Below, piece by piece: positions 20,620-25,664 of a DNA stretch of 64,000 nucleotides. The notes below the pieces were generated by a model. The model ran no database searches. It was not told the origin of the DNA and saw only the letters and a list, made by a program, of their open reading frames with translations. The translations under genes were made by a program, and so were the position numbers. Source of the DNA: a bacterium (lineage in GTDB: Bacteria; Patescibacteriota; Patescibacteriia; 2-01-FULL-39-33); NCBI GenBank assembly GCA_037130015.1, contig JBAXTU010000002.1:1909-65908 (forward strand), in the 5' to 3' direction. How positions within the stretch are numbered: the first letter of the stretch is position 1; the number at the start of each line of letters is the position of its first letter.

Positions 20620-21601
20620 TTATATGTCGTTTAATAATTCTTTGGCTAAATAATTAATCTCTGTCAATTTATCCGGCTCATATTGTTTAATCAGCCCGCT
20701 GTAGCTTGATAAATTGCCTAAATTAATCCGCAGTCTCAATCTTTTGTTATTTCGTCTGCTAAGCCATCGGTTCCAAGGATAAATCACCACACCCAAAAAT
20801 TTCAATCCCCGATTCGCTTTTATGATTATATCATGGCGACAGTTTATATCAAGTCGCAAATCATGCTTTAAAAATTCTATGACATTAATCCTAATTTTAC
20901 CCAATTCTACCGCATTATCTGCTAAAATAATAAAATCATCACCATAGCGCAAATAATATTTGATTTTTAGATTATGTTTTACAAATCTATCCAGTTCATT
21001 GAGATAAATATTGGCAAAAATCTGACTGGTCAGATTACCAATAGGAATGCCACGGGCAGTTTTACTCTCTCTCTCTCTCGTATTGCCTGGGTTCGCTAAA
21101 AATTATTTTTCTCATTATGGCCAAAACCCGATCATCGCTAATTTTTCTGGCTATCAAACCAAACAAAATTCCCTGATTAACGTTGTCAAAAAATTTCTTT
21201 ATGTCGGACCGCCAAACATAACCGGCGGACTGGCGACGCAAAAATTCCTGCGTACGCTTTATAGCGCCAATAAGTCCTTTACCCTCGCGACACGACCAAG
21301 CGTCATAAATAAATGTCTTGTCAAAAATCGGCTTCAAGTATTCATAAAGCAAACGATGGACGACGCGATCACGCACCGGAGCAATTTTGATCAGTCGCCG
21401 TTTGTTATCAATCACGACAAACTGCCGATAATCGCCGGGCCGATAGTTGCCACTAATCAAATCCGCTTCCAACCGCCTTAGATTATTTTCTAAAAAATAT
21501 TCAAATTCAATAATTTCTCGACTGGCGATTTTTCCGCTCCTGAACAACCGCCAACATTTATACAAATTACTTAAACTAAAATTTATGGATTCACTGCCCA
21601 T
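20620..21601 (-). CDS. diversity-generating retroelement reverse transcriptase, reading frame interrupted by a +1 frameshift in a (CT)7 tract at 21065-21078
   Basis: N-part (21062..21601) has SNLYKCW..., KRRLIKIAPVRDRVVHRLL and DIKKFFDNV RT motifs; the continuation in the +1 frame reads RGIPIGNLTSQIFANIYLNELD (DGR-specific substitution of the QGxxxSP motif) and MRYGDDFIIL (YxDD); one extra AG unit would give a continuous ~326-aa protein. Confidence 0.85.
21065..21078. repeat. (CT)7 dinucleotide tract at the RT frameshift site
   Basis: read directly; frame A stops at 21062-21064; frame B is open from 21102 downstream. Confidence 0.9.
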
Positions 21602-21926
21602 TATTATAAGAACTTATGAGATTTATAAAGCAATTTTTGACCTTAATGAACATATGGAAAAACGCCAACGCTACTCGCTCGGTAATAGCTTAGAAAATAC
21701 GCTTTTAATTATGCTGGAAAATTTCATCATGGCCAAAAACGCGCCCAAGCCGCTCAAAGCGGCTTATTTGATCAAAGCCGGCGCCCAGCAGGAAACCGCC
21801 ATTTTAAAGTTGCGTTTGATTTTAGAATTGAAGCTAGCCAATGAGACTAGAATTTTCCAAACGCAAGCTAAATTAGCCGAGGTAGGACGCATGCTGGGCG
21901 GCTGGCTTAAATCTTTATCTTCATAA
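21585..21926 (+). CDS. avd: DGR accessory variability determinant Avd (four-helix bundle)
   Basis: 113 aa from MDSLPIIIRTYEIYKAIFDL...; C-terminal AEVGRMLGGWLKSL matches Bordetella phage bAvd AEVGRILGSWIARV; opposite strand to RT, 5' ends overlap 17 nt. Confidence 0.8.
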   Translation: MDSLPIIIRTYEIYKAIFDLNEHMEKRQRYSLGNSLENTLLIMLENFIMAKNAPKPLKAAYLIKAGAQQETAILKLRLILELKLANETRIFQTQAKLAEVGRMLGGWLKSLSS

Positions 21927-21932
21927 ACCCTT

Positions 21933-22048
21933 GCCACGGAACGAAATCCATCGTTGGAATTCCGATTGTCGGGATTGTTCCTGTTCAAGTTCGGCTGGCG
22001 ATTGTTGCGGTTCCAGTTGAAATTCGGAACATGGCCGGACACATTTTA
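21933..22048 (-). repeat. DGR template repeat (TR)
   Basis: ~116 bp; minus-strand sense is AAC-rich (encodes SGHVPNFNWNRNNRQPNLNRNNPDNRNSNDGFRSVAR); aligns to VR with 19 mismatches, all at TR adenines. Confidence 0.88.
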
Positions 22049-22305
22049 TGACGAAAAATATCCGCTTCGCCAGCTATCGCAATAACCGGCTACTGTTTGT
22101 TTTCCGCTCATACGCGAGGTTTTATGAAAAATAAATTATGTAAAGCTGGCAAATACCATATTAGCCAAAATGCTTAACAATAATTTGTTGCGGTTGCACG
22201 GTCCGAGCCGCGTGGCTATACCCCGCTGGAAATAATTTTCCCCGTCAAAGGATCAAAACTAAAATTAAAATAAAATTTAAATTCTAAAATCCAAAAGACA
22301 ACCAG

Positions 22306-23292: not shown

Positions 23293-23603
23293 AAGAAGAT
23301 TAAATTAAGACTTTAAATTGCAATTTTATTTATTTTAAAAACCCACATATTCAATTTCTTCCATCAGCTGAATACCAAAATGATCTCGCACTTTTTGTTT
23401 TCCGCTCATACGCGAGGTTTTATGAAAAATAAATTATGTAAAGCTGGCAAATACCATATTAGCCAAAATGCTTAACAATAATTTGTTGCGGTTGCACGGT
23501 CCGAGCCGCGTGGCTATACCCCGCTGGAAATAATTTTCCCCGTCAAAGGATCAAAACTAAAATTAAAATAAAATTTAAATTCTAAAATCCAAAAGACAAC
23601 CAG

Positions 23604-24590
23604 CTACAACCTCGCCACGGAACGAAACCCATCGCAGGAAACCCGATAGTCGGGATTGACCCTGTCCAAGTACGGCCGGCGAAAGCTGCGGTACCAGTCG
23701 AAATCCGGAACATGGCCGGACACAAATTGTCCGACCAAATAATTAGCTTTGCCCTTGCCTTGATAGTCATCTATGGCGGTATGGTCTTCTTGCAGATGAG
23801 TCAGCCAATCAGAGAGAGCGGCTTCAGGGGTGAGGCCTTGTTCGTTTTGATATTGAGGATTTGTTTGCAGGGCTTTGAGGTAATCTTTGGGAGATTGATT
23901 GGCTTCAAACTGTTTACGGCCATTGATGGTTTGGCCCTTGCCTTCGGCCGGCAAATCAGGGAGGTTTTCTAGGAGGAGGAATTGCCAAGCATTAGACGGA
24001 TCTTGTTTAAGGAGTTCGCTTTTGTATTTACCACCTCGCTGATCTTTGGTCTGGCCGTCGTAATTGGTGACTTGGTATTCCATTTGCTTGTCTGGATCTG
24101 TCTGAGGATTGTCGCATTGGATGAGATCTTGCCAAATGTAGAGAGGATCTTCGGTGTTGAGCTCTAGCGTGGAGTCATCTGTGGCTTTAATACCTGATTC
24201 CTGGTGGACTTTAAGCAAGGTTTCTTTGTACCTCTGGATTTGGATGGAAAGAGGCAGAGCAAAAGGCACGAGGCGAAGCTGGGTAAAGCCTTGTTCTGCT
24301 TTCTTTTCAATTATCTTTCTTTTTTCTGGGTCTTTAAGTTTGTTTAAGATGTCTTCATAGCTTGGCAAGCTGTATTCCTGGCCATCAACGCCAACAATTC
24401 CCTGCTCGGGCATATATCTGTCTTTGTCTGGATCAACGGGAAAGTTTTCCAATAGGCCTGTTTGGTAGAGAACTTTTATTTGGGCTAGGTATTGGTCGTG
24501 TAAGTGGAGACGTTCGGCAAGAGCTTCAATGGCTTCTTGGCCATGGTCTTGCTGTTCTGTTTGGGATTTGCGACGTTCGGGAGAGGGCAT
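23604..24590 (-). CDS. DGR target protein copy 2 (identical to copy 1)
   Basis: identical 328-aa translation in ORF track. Confidence 0.8.
   Translation of the reverse strand: MPSPERRKSQTEQQDHGQEAIEALAERLHLHDQYLAQIKVLYQTGLLENFPVDPDKDRYMPEQGIVGVDGQEYSLPSYEDILNKLKDPEKRKIIEKKAEQGFTQLRLVPFALPLSIQIQRYKETLLKVHQESGIKATDDSTLELNTEDPLYIWQDLIQCDNPQTDPDKQMEYQVTNYDGQTKDQRGGKYKSELLKQDPSNAWQFLLLENLPDLPAEGKGQTINGRKQFEANQSPKDYLKALQTNPQYQNEQGLTPEAALSDWLTHLQEDHTAIDDYQGKGKANYLVGQFVSGHVPDFDWYRSFRRPYLDRVNPDYRVSCDGFRSVARL
23614..23728 (-). repeat. DGR variable repeat VR (copy 2, identical to copy 1)
   Basis: copy-1 coordinates + 1298. Confidence 0.8.
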
Positions 24591-24632
24591 AAGAAGATTA
24601 AATTAAGACTTTAAATTGCAATTTTATTTATT

Positions 24633-25664
24633 TTAAAAACCCACATATTCAATTTCTTCCATCAGCTGAATACCAAAATGATCTCGCACTTTTTGTTTGA
24701 TAATAGAAACAAGCATAATAATGTTTTCAGCTGTGGCTGTGCCATTATTAATAATAAAACCAGCATGGCCATAGGAAACACTGGCGCCCCCAATACTTTT
24801 GCCTTTTAAATTCAGCTGATCAATCAGCCATGACGCTGGAATTTTTTTGAACTTAATAAATTCTTCGGGAAAGGCCGGAAATTTATTTTTAAATTCTTTT
24901 ACTTCTTTTTCAGTCAGAACAACATTTTTAAAAATACTGCCGGCGCAATAACCACATTCCTCTTGGCCTTCAATTTTAATGGCCAAGGCCATTTTAGCTG
25001 ATCTTTCTCTGGCAATTTTTTTCATTCTTTCTTTGGCCTCCAATAATTCTTGGTCATTGCCTCGCTTTAATTTAAAAGTAGCAGAAATAATAATATCATG
25101 ATTACCATTAGCTTTAAAAATAGACTCACGATAATCAAAATGACAATCTTTATTTTTTAATTCTTTAATTTTTCCATTTCGCAGTACTGTCACGCTTTCC
25201 ACACTATCACCTGTCGCACCGCCATAAGCACCAGCATTGCCACGCACGGCTCCGCCAATAGTACCTGGCACACCAACAGCCCATTCTAGCCCAATCAAAC
25301 CCGCACCCAATGATTCACCAACAGACTTTGACAAAAAAGCGCCAGCATCACACTCAAGACCTTCTTCTTTTCTTTTTACCTTACTCATCAACAACCTAAT
25401 AACCAAACCATCAAAGCCAGTATTACTGACTAAAACATTACTACCACCACCCATTACAAAAACAGAAATTTGTTTTTTTTCAGCCCACTGACAGATTATC
25501 TCTAATTCTTCCACAGATTGAATGAGGGCAAAATATTTAGCCGGACCACCTATGCGAAAAGTCGTGTGTTGAGACAATATCTGATTTTCTTTAAAACGAT
25601 CTCCCAATAAATCTTTTATTTTTTGCAATTGTTCCATATTACTTTTTCTTTTTATTTCTGACAT
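24633..25664 (-). CDS. murB: UDP-N-acetylenolpyruvoylglucosamine reductase MurB
   Basis: FAD-binding TTFRIGGPA and GGGSNVLV motifs; start set at ATG (M16 of track ORF), preceded by GGAGG; track start is GTG. Confidence 0.85.
   Translation of the reverse strand: MSEIKRKSNMEQLQKIKDLLGDRFKENQILSQHTTFRIGGPAKYFALIQSVEELEIICQWAEKKQISVFVMGGGSNVLVSNTGFDGLVIRLLMSKVKRKEEGLECDAGAFLSKSVGESLGAGLIGLEWAVGVPGTIGGAVRGNAGAYGGATGDSVESVTVLRNGKIKELKNKDCHFDYRESIFKANGNHDIIISATFKLKRGNDQELLEAKERMKKIARERSAKMALAIKIEGQEECGYCAGSIFKNVVLTEKEVKEFKNKFPAFPEEFIKFKKIPASWLIDQLNLKGKSIGGASVSYGHAGFIINNGTATAENIIMLVSIIKQKVRDHFGIQLMEEIEYVGF

Follow-up and report, generated by a model that had tools for sequence, protein, structure and literature searches.

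Does a diversity-generating retroelement (DGR) that retains all of its parts, but whose reverse transcriptase (RT) frame is broken in every assembly of its strain, still diversify its target? The sequence-only reading of the window (the whole 64,000-nt stretch of DNA analysed) had described a complete DGR with every component readable. The parts were indeed all present; the RT frame, however, was interrupted at a (GA)7 repeat, and the two most informative features of the locus, the split RT and a tandem duplication, had been overlooked. The minus-strand order is murB, target (duplicated), TR, avd (opposite strand), RT and a conserved 888-aa protein, with murB directly upstream of the DGR, as the earlier reading had placed it, and avd the only DGR part on the plus strand:

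17952..20618, minus strand: 888-aa protein, its ATG 1 nt after the RT stop; a conserved neighbour in this DGR type
20620..21102, minus strand: RT C-terminal frame (GIPIGNLTSQ, YGDDF, thumb), open from 21102
21062..21601, minus strand: RT N-terminal frame, 179 codons, RT motifs 1-2, with TAA immediately after the GA tract
21065..21079, minus strand: (GA)7G repeat, which puts the RT halves out of frame
21585..21926, plus strand: avd, 113 aa, four-helix-bundle accessory protein, divergent from RT
21929..22045, minus strand: TR, ~117 nt, AAY-rich
22096..24698: perfect tandem duplication, two 1,298-bp units plus a 7-nt overlap
22306..23292, minus strand: distal target copy, 328 aa, 100% identical to the proximal copy
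22312..22428, minus strand: VR1, 3' end of the distal target copy, identical to VR2
23335..23400, minus strand: 3'-end fragment of murB (last 21 codons and stop) between the target copies, identical to 24633..24698
23604..24590, minus strand: murB-proximal target copy, 328 aa, with a C-terminal C-type-lectin/FGE-like domain containing VR2
23610..23726, minus strand: VR2, last ~39 codons of the proximal copy, 83% identical to TR

We hold it as nearly certain that the locus is a genuine chromosomal DGR of the CPR/Patescibacteria type with recent homing. Its identity as a DGR follows from the best RT match, the Avd profile matches, TR/VR differences confined to TR adenines, and the fold of the target; with a second VR allele, these bear out the original DGR call. 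The closest solved structure to the RT was Bordetella bRT (8ub7_A, E = 2.3e-40), and the best group II intron RT (3.6e-25) and retron RT (2e-4) matches were weaker. The (I/L)G(N/S)LTSQ motif is likewise shared with the Bordetella phage BPP-1 DGR, as is an Avd four-helix bundle with a conserved AEVGR.LG.W C-terminus. Here, the C-terminus of Avd is AEVGRMLGGWLKSLSS; its gene overlaps the RT start by 17 nt at the 5' end, and its stop abuts TR. The homology to Avd that had been read from the letters held, as the PF22296 bAvd profile matched above its cut-off (6.1e-11, 43.2 bits, cut-off 40) and an alignment to 4dwl bAvd, albeit weak, spanned AEVGRMLGGWL. The NF033474 profile gave 7.2e-15, but at 55 bits remained below its cut-off of 80, and GenBank names the product 'four helix bundle protein'. 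At its C-terminus, the target model (pLDDT 95) adopts a C-type-lectin/FGE-like fold, for which the DGR variable proteins TvpA, Mtd, and TaqVP gave matches. The 888-aa protein, with a helical N-terminal region and a GNAT-like fold at its C-terminus, may also belong to the DGR system, judging by synteny only.

Adenine-specific homing has left a clear record at this locus. The TR, anticipated as a 116-bp AAC-rich repeat and found at nearly that length, holds 34 adenines, 13 AAY codons, and ~19 variable codons, corresponding to ~1e18.7 possible peptides. Besides the VRs themselves, it alone in the 64 kb contains a copy of the VR core. As in BPP-1, the VR lies at the C-terminus of a C-type-lectin-fold protein, here the 328-aa product to which it had previously been assigned. 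TR and VR differ at 18-20 positions, all on TR adenines (homologous block; P ~1e-13 for the 117-nt block), with 16 of 18 differences in codon positions 1-2 and perfect identity outside adenines; the A-specific pattern, whose absence would have spoken against a DGR, is therefore present. The VR peptide quoted earlier (N..NRNNPDNRN...GFR) proved to be a conceptual translation of TR, whereas the real VR encodes ...DFDWYRSFRRPYLDRVNPDYRVSCDGFRSVARL. One metagenome-assembled genome (MAG; GCA_964512275.1, P0001/L005) matches window positions 34590..12306 (~22 kb) with no substitution beyond 17 VR bases, all at TR-adenine positions; these are the positions at which its allele (VR-b, loci L005-L009) departs from the window VR2. 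Because two VR alleles occur in otherwise identical DNA, homing occurred recently in this population. Each allele occurs together with (GA)7 and does not vary among several samples (4-5 assemblies), so the DGR looks quiescent now.

The locus has two genes with a VR, but these are exact duplicates rather than targets diversified separately. An identity run at an offset of 1298 (22096..23400 = 23394..24698) delimits the two units. Each spans 66 nt from the 3' end of murB, the target gene, and a further 210 nt downstream of it, with the microhomology TTTGTTT on the flanks. The target gene was duplicated in tandem via this 7-nt microhomology and, because both copies carry the same VR, later than its last homing event. 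The duplication was absent from the sequence-only reading. An assembler could conceivably have made it, and possibly the GA-tract length too, given that the copies are 100% identical including the VR, that the target is single-copy in two other assemblies and one MAG (L001, L002, L005), and that assembly graphs often suffer from the TR/VR repeats of DGRs and from strain variation. We nonetheless consider such an artefact very improbable. The duplication edges lie at the microhomology in murB and downstream of the target rather than at TR/VR, and the junction recurs in three independent contigs of other assemblies (L003, L004, L008), one of which (L003, 1439 nt = 1298 + 141, terminal overlap 141 nt) bears the signature of a tandem repeat looped in a k=141 graph. 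Moreover, with short reads an assembler merges tandem duplications into one copy and does not create them, and the GA-tract length was reproduced in eight assemblies.

The RT gene is split by the out-of-frame (GA)7, which sits in a 13-aa loop inserted relative to bRT. The IGNLTSQ and YGDDF motifs reported from the sequence were found between 21601 and 20620, but in a frame split at (GA)7G rather than in one intact ORF. The C-terminal frame has no start codon ahead of the catalytic motifs, and joining the halves takes +2 nt or -1 nt; one extra GA unit (8; likewise 5, 11, and so on) yields a 327-aa RT. The tract is the sole dinucleotide tract of at least 5 units in the window (0 expected from shuffles). 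The frameshift is genuine rather than introduced by assembly, since the same (GA)7 with its 179- and 110-aa ORFs is common to the window and other assemblies (L001, L005/L105, L104, L106, L107, L108) and GenBank annotates the RT region as two CDSs. The 179-aa N-terminal ORF occurs in at least six further contigs, the out-of-frame state in eight assemblies, and seven units are the consensus in all assemblies of the strain. One contig (L103) has (GA)8, making the tract polymorphic in this population, and also a CC deletion 10 nt upstream of the tract that keeps it out of frame; this could mean that the phase itself is maintained, favouring recoding, or that ON alleles are counter-selected. An exact look-up of the hypothetical 2-, 5-, 8-, 11-, and 14-unit proteins among ~15 billion sequences returned no in-frame allele of this strain. 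The nearest full-length RT in the homologue search was only ~70% identical, and RT homologues at 50-72% identity were from CPR wherever the source names them.

Related DGRs carry the same repeat. We scanned for tracts of 5.5 units or more with TAAA behind them, and the frequencies given here are valid for that subset only. The scan located 92 further loci whose RT carries a GA tract in the same loop, 5-18 units long; nearly all of the labelled ones are CPR, and the GA-tract loci form 70 clusters at 90% identity. An opposite-strand Avd adjoins RT in 65 of 68 evaluable loci. The informative loci numbered 76, with L010 and the window among them. In 60 of these (79%) the RT was out of frame, and in 16, somewhat fewer than the one-third expected from random phase, it was in frame; the phases of the N-terminal frame were distributed near-evenly (31/23/22). 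More than one tract length was present in 9 of 16 multi-member clusters, and in three the alleles were in frame in some members and out of frame in others. Within near-clonal contig pairs, the sole indel was the tract, which flipped the frame: L055 (6 units, in frame) and L081 (7 units, out of frame), from replicate samples, had 0 mismatches in 2,035 nt; L042 and L097, also differing in the tract, had 0 in 1,275 nt; and L025/L036 and L079/L068 combined a tract difference with 1-3 mismatches in ~2.8 kb. Such switching was read from assembled consensus sequences. Both RT halves are open in out-of-frame loci, Y[GTCAS]DD is kept in all but one C-terminal half long enough to check, and dN/dS is ~0.11 for both halves (OFF-OFF pairs); to judge from these signatures, out-of-frame RT genes are not decaying. 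The same loop holds (AC)11 in another lineage (L116) and probably a pentanucleotide repeat in P0241.

In Bordetella BPP-1, the TR transcript is reverse-transcribed by RT-Avd with misincorporation opposite adenines, and the cDNA replaces VR. Comparable homing here would replace the VR at the 3' end of the target with mutagenized TR cDNA, re-randomising ~19 codons on the ligand-binding face of the C-type-lectin-fold domain. The recurring, variable-length GA tract suggests a stochastic on/off switch for this targeted hypermutation: as a hypermutable contingency locus, it would gain or lose units by slipped-strand mispairing and so flip the RT between OFF (7 units) and ON (8 units). Mutagenic homing would then be limited to few cells or brief episodes, with successful VR variants frozen afterwards, and slippage by 2 nt on the tract, at the RNA level or by the ribosome, could add a low constitutive leak. 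We give a probability of roughly 55% to the full reading, namely a genuine CPR DGR with recent homing whose RT is gated by a hypermutable GA repeat and is currently OFF.

It is possible, although we think it unlikely, that the (GA)7 allele is functional through programmed recoding, in which a little full-length RT is made from the out-of-frame gene and DNA tract length is secondary. This could proceed by -2/+1 ribosomal slippage on the GA repeat, where tRNA-Glu and tRNA-Arg could pair again without mismatch after a 2-nt shift and a UAA stops the N-terminal frame right after the tract, or by an RNA polymerase that stutters and inserts an additional GA unit. Transcriptional slippage is established for homopolymer runs but is not known to be so for dinucleotide repeats, which counts against the latter. 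Recoding would explain two VR alleles despite (GA)7 in every strain assembly, the compensating 2-nt deletion that keeps the same phase in the only 8-unit contig, the TAA right behind the tract, and purifying selection on both RT halves of out-of-frame loci; a frameshifted yet apparently active DGR RT has also been proposed for Quimbyvirus phages (PMC8008677). However, a programmed site is hard to reconcile with three similarly frequent phase relations over the 76 informative loci, with 16 loci plainly in frame, with the stop-terminated phase not being enriched (31 of 60 out-of-frame loci), or with tract-length changes between near-identical contigs keeping phase in about one-third of cases, the chance level. 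We find it still less probable that the element is dead, its once-active RT now a pseudogene by ordinary frameshift and its VR alleles fossils. Inactivated DGRs are common, with more than half of candidates discarded in one survey (Wu et al. 2018; PMC5758913), and a dead RT would suit its out-of-frame state in 8 of 8 assemblies, the lack of an in-frame allele on record, the identical target copies, and the constancy of each VR allele over 4-5 assemblies. Nevertheless, the last homing was very recent, as shown by the ~22 kb without other substitution between VR alleles; the RT halves (tract aside), Avd, and TR are intact, with TR and VR identical outside adenines; and dN/dS of ~0.11 with retained catalytic motifs is not pseudogene behaviour. 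The break also falls at a position-conserved, length-variable, mostly out-of-frame repeat in 70 clusters, and a single one-unit slip restores the frame.

DGRs of CPR and DPANN were reportedly treated by Paul et al. in 2017. Among the papers accessible to us, none mentions a GA repeat or an RT interruption of variable length in DGRs, nor did we come across an account of an RT gated in this way. Unlike the phage-borne BPP-1 DGR, this locus is chromosomal in a CPR bacterium, has avd on the opposite strand between TR and RT, encodes a 328-aa target without sequence similarity to Mtd that is duplicated in tandem, and carries the frame-breaking repeat in an RT loop insertion. It resembles CPR DGRs, 90% of which are of the B3 subtype of family B (Wu et al. 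2018; PMC5758913), in its family B gene set (target, avd, TR, and RT, without other accessory genes) and in a target without Pfam domains. The published surveys examined, however, were confined to intact RTs, with Wu et al. dropping over half of their candidates for premature stops and comparable defects. In the Quimbyvirus gut-phage DGR (Benler et al. 2021; PMC8008677), the RT likewise is not a single ORF, lying in three overlapping frames with two proposed programmed ribosomal frameshifts, and VR variation among near-identical genomes is adenine-specific. That element is phage-borne, with no simple-sequence repeat or length polymorphism reported, whereas the RT here is broken once, at a hypervariable dinucleotide repeat, and has relatives in all three phases. 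Another parallel, in form, is the phase-variable type III mod gene of Mycoplasma mycoides ((AG)n-TAA; PMC3498834), where TAA comes straight after an intragenic AG/GA repeat in the OFF phase and ON/OFF alleles differ by whole repeat units, although switching in the DGRs is read from consensus sequences. Known contingency genes encode surface structures, restriction-modification enzymes, and phage receptors in host-associated pathogens. If our reading is true, the switched gene here, in environmental ultra-small bacteria, would instead be the mutator enzyme of a second, targeted diversity generator.

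Read on the minus strand, the locus runs from murB through two copies of a target gene, the template repeat (TR), avd (encoded on the plus strand) and a reverse transcriptase (RT) to an 888-aa ORF. The parts of the diversity-generating retroelement (DGR) and its neighbours are as follows.

Features of the DGR locus (coordinates, strand, feature)
25709..24633, minus: murB, with MurB_C and FAD_binding_4 domains
24590..23604, minus: target gene, 328 aa, proximal copy
23292..22306, minus: target gene, 328 aa, distal copy
22312..22428 and 23610..23726, minus: VR pair, the repeat copies in the target genes
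22045..21929, minus: TR, 117 nt, A-rich, the template copy of the repeat
21585..21926, plus: avd, ORF of 113 aa
21601..20620, minus: RT-like coding sequence in two frames
20618..17952, minus: ORF of 888 aa, its ATG 1 base after the RT stop

Joined across its two frames, the RT has its best solved relative in bRT of the Bordetella phage BPP-1 DGR (8ub7_A; E 2.3e-40, 142 bits, residues 11-294), ahead of the GsI-IIC group II intron RT (3.6e-25) and the retron Ec83 RT (2e-4). The RT is accordingly of the DGR type, and the affinity to group II introns or retrons that the sequence-only reading had named as the outcome that would count against it was not found. It matches Pfam RVT_1 (1.1e-17), carries GIPIGNLTSQ and YGDDF, and scores 146 bits with the group II model TIGR04416, far under the 300-bit cut-off. 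Avd, whose gene adjoins both RT and TR and is divergent from the RT, matches the bAvd family PF22296 (43.2 bits, cut-off 40) and NF033474 (DivGenRetAVD; 7.2e-15, below the curated cut-off), and aligns weakly to bAvd (4dwl) over its AEVGR.LG.W end. The target protein gave no Pfam, NCBIfam or PDB sequence match; its family comprises 57 proteins, the named members being CPR, and an AlphaFold model based on 52 sequences has a pLDDT of 95.1 and a pTM of 0.91. The VR sits within target coding sequence, as in other DGRs, in which a C-type-lectin or Ig fold typically carries it at the C-terminus.

A repeat finder placed three copies of a repeat of about 120 nt at 21924-22043, 22307-22426 and 23605-23724; the second and third are identical, the first matches them at 83%, and the 64 kb contain no further copy. 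Over a 112-nt core (minus strand), all 18 TR/VR differences fall at TR adenines (hypergeometric P ~1e-13), with 16 of them in the first or second codon position; on the 3' side, homology ends at the first mismatch that falls on a base other than A. Because the differences lie solely at adenines of 21929..22045, that copy is the TR, and 22312..22428 and 23610..23726 are the VRs. The A-specific pattern on which the sequence-only reading depended is therefore present and both its VR ranges were right, but the peptide it quoted for the VR is a translation of the TR: read in the target frame, the TR gives NVSGHVPNFNWNRNNRQPNLNRNNPDNRNSNDGFRSVARV, with 13 AAY codons, whereas the target gene itself gives FVSGHVPDFDWYRSFRRPYLDRVNPDYRVSCDGFRSVARL. 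TR and VRs share a GC-rich 3' block, GATGG(A/G)TTTCGTTCCGTGGC, and homology stops just beyond it; the 141 nt 3' of the VR, folded in search of the GC-rich hairpin (IMH) that directs homing in DGRs, gave a weak fold (z -2.2) with no obvious GC hairpin.

The nearest member of the target family, P0001, is 96% identical to the window's target protein and differs from it in the VR alone. Its contig, L005 (MAG GCA_964512275.1), belongs to the window's own strain and is colinear with window positions 34590..12306; 17 nt differ, all in the VR and all at TR-adenine positions, one extra mismatch being an alignment artefact at the duplication junction. Two VR alleles can be distinguished on this basis, each present in several assemblies: VR-a (the window and four further contigs of the strain, L001-L004) and VR-b (L005-L009), the latter separated from the TR by 19 A-to-N changes. 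Since the VR accounts for every difference over about 22 kb, at least one complete retrohoming event separates the two genomes, and the pair of alleles represents a clean natural VR swap. Taken together, the RT relatives, Avd, the adenine-only TR/VR differences and the VR-b allele show that the DGR call made from the sequence alone was correct and is well supported.

The locus also displays target-gene amplification. Positions 22096..23400 and 23394..24698 are exactly identical, forming two 1,298-bp units with a 7-nt overlap, each comprising the target gene with the final 66 nt of murB before it and 210 nt after it, and bordered by the microhomology TTTGTTT. The duplication is real in at least part of the population: its junction was found in three contigs of other assemblies, and contig L003 measures 1439 nt, or 1298 + 141, with a 141-nt terminal overlap, a pattern characteristic of tandem repeats assembled in a k=141 graph. 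In L001, L002 and L005, by comparison, murB is followed by one target copy and then the TR. Because both copies in the window carry VR-a, the duplication most simply post-dates the last homing event in its lineage. Contig L008, in which VR-b occurs with the junction, was not relied on as proof of a duplication before the VR-a/VR-b split, since the 234 nt shared between VR and junction exceed the assembly k-mer and the link may be chimeric. Multiple targets recur in the family. The relative L109 (8117-15056), whose RT is intact, has its cassette flanked by two diverged paralogues of the target (342 and 325 aa, ~82% nucleotide identity), each bearing a VR of its own, and contigs of the type of L010, another relative, carry the two family members P0010 and P0018; the window's pair differs from these in being an identical tandem.

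At 21585..21601 the start codons of avd and RT overlap by 17 nt on opposite strands, so that each promoter must sit inside the other gene or further upstream; a promoter and terminator scan gave counts near those of shuffled controls and defined no transcription units. The avd stop abuts the TR, and the RNA just 3' of the TR is consequently antisense to the conserved GRMLGGWL-coding end of avd. Priming in Bordetella takes place in RNA just 3' of the TR. An Rfam scan of the 64-kb window returned nothing at the DGR, its sole family being a ribosomal protein L10 leader (RF00557, 49 bits) at 10270..10410 on the minus strand, and ARAGORN found no tRNA gene in the window. Elsewhere, positions 38509..42551 (plus strand) have a G+C content of 0.44-0.49, compared with about 0.37 in the remainder, and encode two proteins, of 806 and 437 aa, whose immunoglobulin domains are of eukaryote type; the larger has six Ig_3/I-set stretches, and the pair is located after a GHL15/FG-GAP protein and before a GT4 glycosyltransferase.

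The GNAT-like 888-aa protein had no match in Pfam, NCBIfam or PDB sequence searches, and the locus points to a conserved putative partner protein of 860-1030 aa. At two related loci (L110 5676-6008 and L112 5088-5992), the large neighbour is preceded by RT remnants only, for example a 110-aa ORF that begins near YLRYGDDF, with stop codons immediately before it. Truly decayed RTs thus also exist in the group, beside the conserved repeat-interrupted ones.

The window's own RT is interrupted by a (GA)7G tract between RT motifs 2 and 3, within an insertion of 13 residues with respect to bRT. The N-terminal ORF ends in ...FSEPRQYERERE, its TAA stop directly following GAGAGAGAGAGAGAG (21079..21065), and the frame containing SKTARGIPIGNLTSQ...YGDDF is open from 21102. 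That downstream frame has no ATG, GTG or TTG before the IGNLTSQ motif, and translation of the RT as two separate polypeptides is accordingly unlikely. One additional GA unit would restore a single 327-aa ORF, as would 5 or 11 units in all. The tract is the sole dinucleotide run of at least 5 units in the window, where none is expected by chance. The frame break is not a sequencing error, because (GA)7 and the 179+110-aa ORFs recur in seven other assemblies and GenBank annotates the RT as two CDSs. Although the DGR parts are present, as the sequence-only reading stated in calling the element complete, no assembly of the strain contains an intact RT ORF; this weakens the description 'complete and currently active', not the identity of the element as a DGR.

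Within the strain, a single contig departs from (GA)7. L103 (JGI sample 3300021074), whose positions 632-735 correspond to window 21030..21130, has (GA)8 but lacks a CC 10 nt upstream and shows no other difference from the window over 2 kb, so that net length and the out-of-frame phase are unchanged. This could reflect a complex single mutation, second-site inactivation of an in-frame allele, or selection for that phase. An exact-flank scan of JGI metagenome contigs recovered no other tract length of this strain, and exact look-up of the hypothetical in-frame proteins with 2, 5, 8, 11 or 14 units found none on record.

The nearest intact RTs are 67-72% identical to that of the window, and some have RERERESK at the position of the tract; in L010, with flanks homologous to the window's, this motif is encoded by (GA)9G followed by TAAAA. 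Among the 120 best full-length homologues, 27 have a loop with at least two RE/ER repeats, and many more have degenerate remnants. Scanning for the tract followed by TAAA and PIGNLTSQ recovered 74 loci from metagenomes and 18 from species-representative genomes; those with a label are nearly all CPR, and the tracts span 5 to 18 GA units. Of 76 informative loci (L010 and the window itself included), 16 were in frame and 60 out of frame. The N-terminal frame was distributed near-evenly over the three phases (31/23/22); with S denoting the frame that meets TAA right after the tract, and K and V the two frames usable by the downstream half, the N-to-C combinations were S>K 28, V>K 19, K>K 12, K>V 10, V>V 4 and S>V 3. 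An opposite-strand avd adjoins the RT in 65 of 68 evaluable loci, as in the window.

Tract length changes readily among close relatives. The loci form 70 clusters at 90% identity; of the 16 with several members, 9 vary in tract length and 3 include in-frame as well as out-of-frame alleles. In the near-clonal pairs below, the tract is the sole indel, and phase was kept in only about one third of the tract-length changes between near-identical contigs. A mismatch cluster in the pair L075/L089 (5099-5180), considered as a VR difference alongside a tract change, was dropped because the repeat involved is unrelated to that locus's TR.

Near-clonal pairs of related loci (GA units and phase in each; length; mismatches)
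L055 / L081 (replicate filters, one aquifer well): 6 (in frame) / 7 (out of frame); 2,035 nt; 0 mismatches
L042 / L097: 18 (out of frame) / 16 (in frame); 1,275 nt; 0 mismatches
L025 / L036: 15 (in frame) / 16 (out of frame); 2,827 nt; 2-3 mismatches
L079 / L068: 15 (in frame) / 16 (out of frame); 2,768 nt; 1 mismatch

In nearly every out-of-frame locus the two halves remain open (~180 codons upstream and ~130-180 downstream), Y[GTCAS]DD is retained in all but one of the C-terminal halves long enough to check, and pairs of out-of-frame loci give a dN/dS of ~0.11, alike for the N and C halves. An unbiased phmmer search that used the N-terminal half as query gave 97 informative representatives, of which at least 10 were out of frame across the IGNLTSQ-coding region; this is a lower bound, as many representatives are contig-end fragments. 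Different repeats occupy the same loop in other RT lineages: L116, a further relative, has an (AC)11 tract (690-715) before IGNLTSQ, out of frame and confirmed in DNA, and the related protein P0241 has a (TEQNR)x7 peptide, from which a pentanucleotide repeat is predicted. P0229 is listed with these two.

The locus is therefore a CPR-type DGR with recent homing and a repeat-interrupted RT, the tract of which is hypervariable and flips frame among near-identical relatives. A frame-setting intragenic repeat, tract variation among close relatives and a gene kept by selection are three of the hallmarks of phase-variable genes, next to high-frequency reversible switching in a clonal population with matching changes in protein and phenotype; in the consensus assemblies analysed, this locus and its relatives show the first three. 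We infer that the GA tract is a contingency switch by which a minority of cells activate the RT, and that the consensus of the window's strain is probably OFF (halves out of frame) and one unit from ON (halves in frame); the coexistence of ON and OFF comes from the relatives, while the strain itself shows 7 units and one 8-unit contig that is still out of frame. Slipped-strand mispairing would add or remove GA units and flip the RT frame; most cells would carry the OFF allele and keep their VR, and rare slippage would turn the RT on, re-randomise the VR and be followed by a return to OFF. Such a contingency locus governing a diversity generator would amount to two-tier bet-hedging, in which targeted hypermutation is itself phase-variable. 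The sequence logic is that of the mod gene described by Algire et al. 2012 (PMC3498834), which is OFF with (AG)12-TAA and ON with (AG)10. More broadly, we assign a probability of roughly 0.5 to the existence of a large clade of CPR DGRs whose RT is gated by a hypermutable repeat in a permissive loop just before IGNLTSQ, with repeats that would be mostly (GA)n, and (AC)n or pentanucleotide in other lineages.

The main rival to such a switch is recoding on the tract, by which RT would be made from the out-of-frame (GA)7 allele itself. A 2-nt slippage on GAGAG permits perfect tRNA re-pairing, the OFF frame meets UAA immediately, and recoding would account both for the occurrence of two VR alleles alongside (GA)7 and for the phase-preserving double indel in L103. 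As a general rule, however, it is at odds with the even phase distribution among relatives, where phase preservation is at chance level; across the 76 loci, neither a fixed frame relation nor a direction of shift is conserved. The near-even N-terminal phases argue against one directional programmed frameshift, which was rejected as the general mechanism since every one of the three phases is seen, with no excess of the stop-terminated one. That the RT has simply decayed into a pseudogene fits poorly with the conservation of repeat-interrupted RTs across the clade and with a VR swap as recent as that between VR-a and VR-b.

Among the DGRs of CPR genomes the locus is an ordinary member. In the survey by Wu et al. 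2018 (PMC5758913), 90% of CPR DGRs have architecture B3, a family-B subtype set apart by how avd and TR are ordered and oriented. The same survey dropped over half of its candidate DGRs for premature stops and similar defects, and Roux et al. 2021 (PMC8144416) do not mention frameshifts. Benler et al. 2021 (PMC8008677) described a phage DGR RT in three overlapping frames with A-specific VR variation still present, DGR RTs having otherwise been single ORFs up to then. In the literature on DGRs with phase variation, slippage, repeats or frameshifts, we found no report of a repeat-gated DGR RT; Paul et al. 2017, outside that scope, may hold a prior mention. What is new is the repeat-interrupted RT, present in variable form in dozens of lineages, and it merits experimental follow-up.

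CPR bacteria are the richest reservoir of DGRs, and no other prokaryotic system is known to rewrite the surface of a chosen protein on demand. If the tract is indeed a switch, DGR mutagenesis would be episodic and heterogeneous within a population, and surveys that drop RTs with premature stops would systematically undercount functional DGRs and misclassify switched-off elements as dead; gating across the clade would explain many of the 'inactivated' DGR RTs in such surveys. Tract length, which can be counted in reads, would then be a simple indicator of how many of the cells can diversify, making the dynamics of targeted hypermutation directly testable in metagenomic time series.
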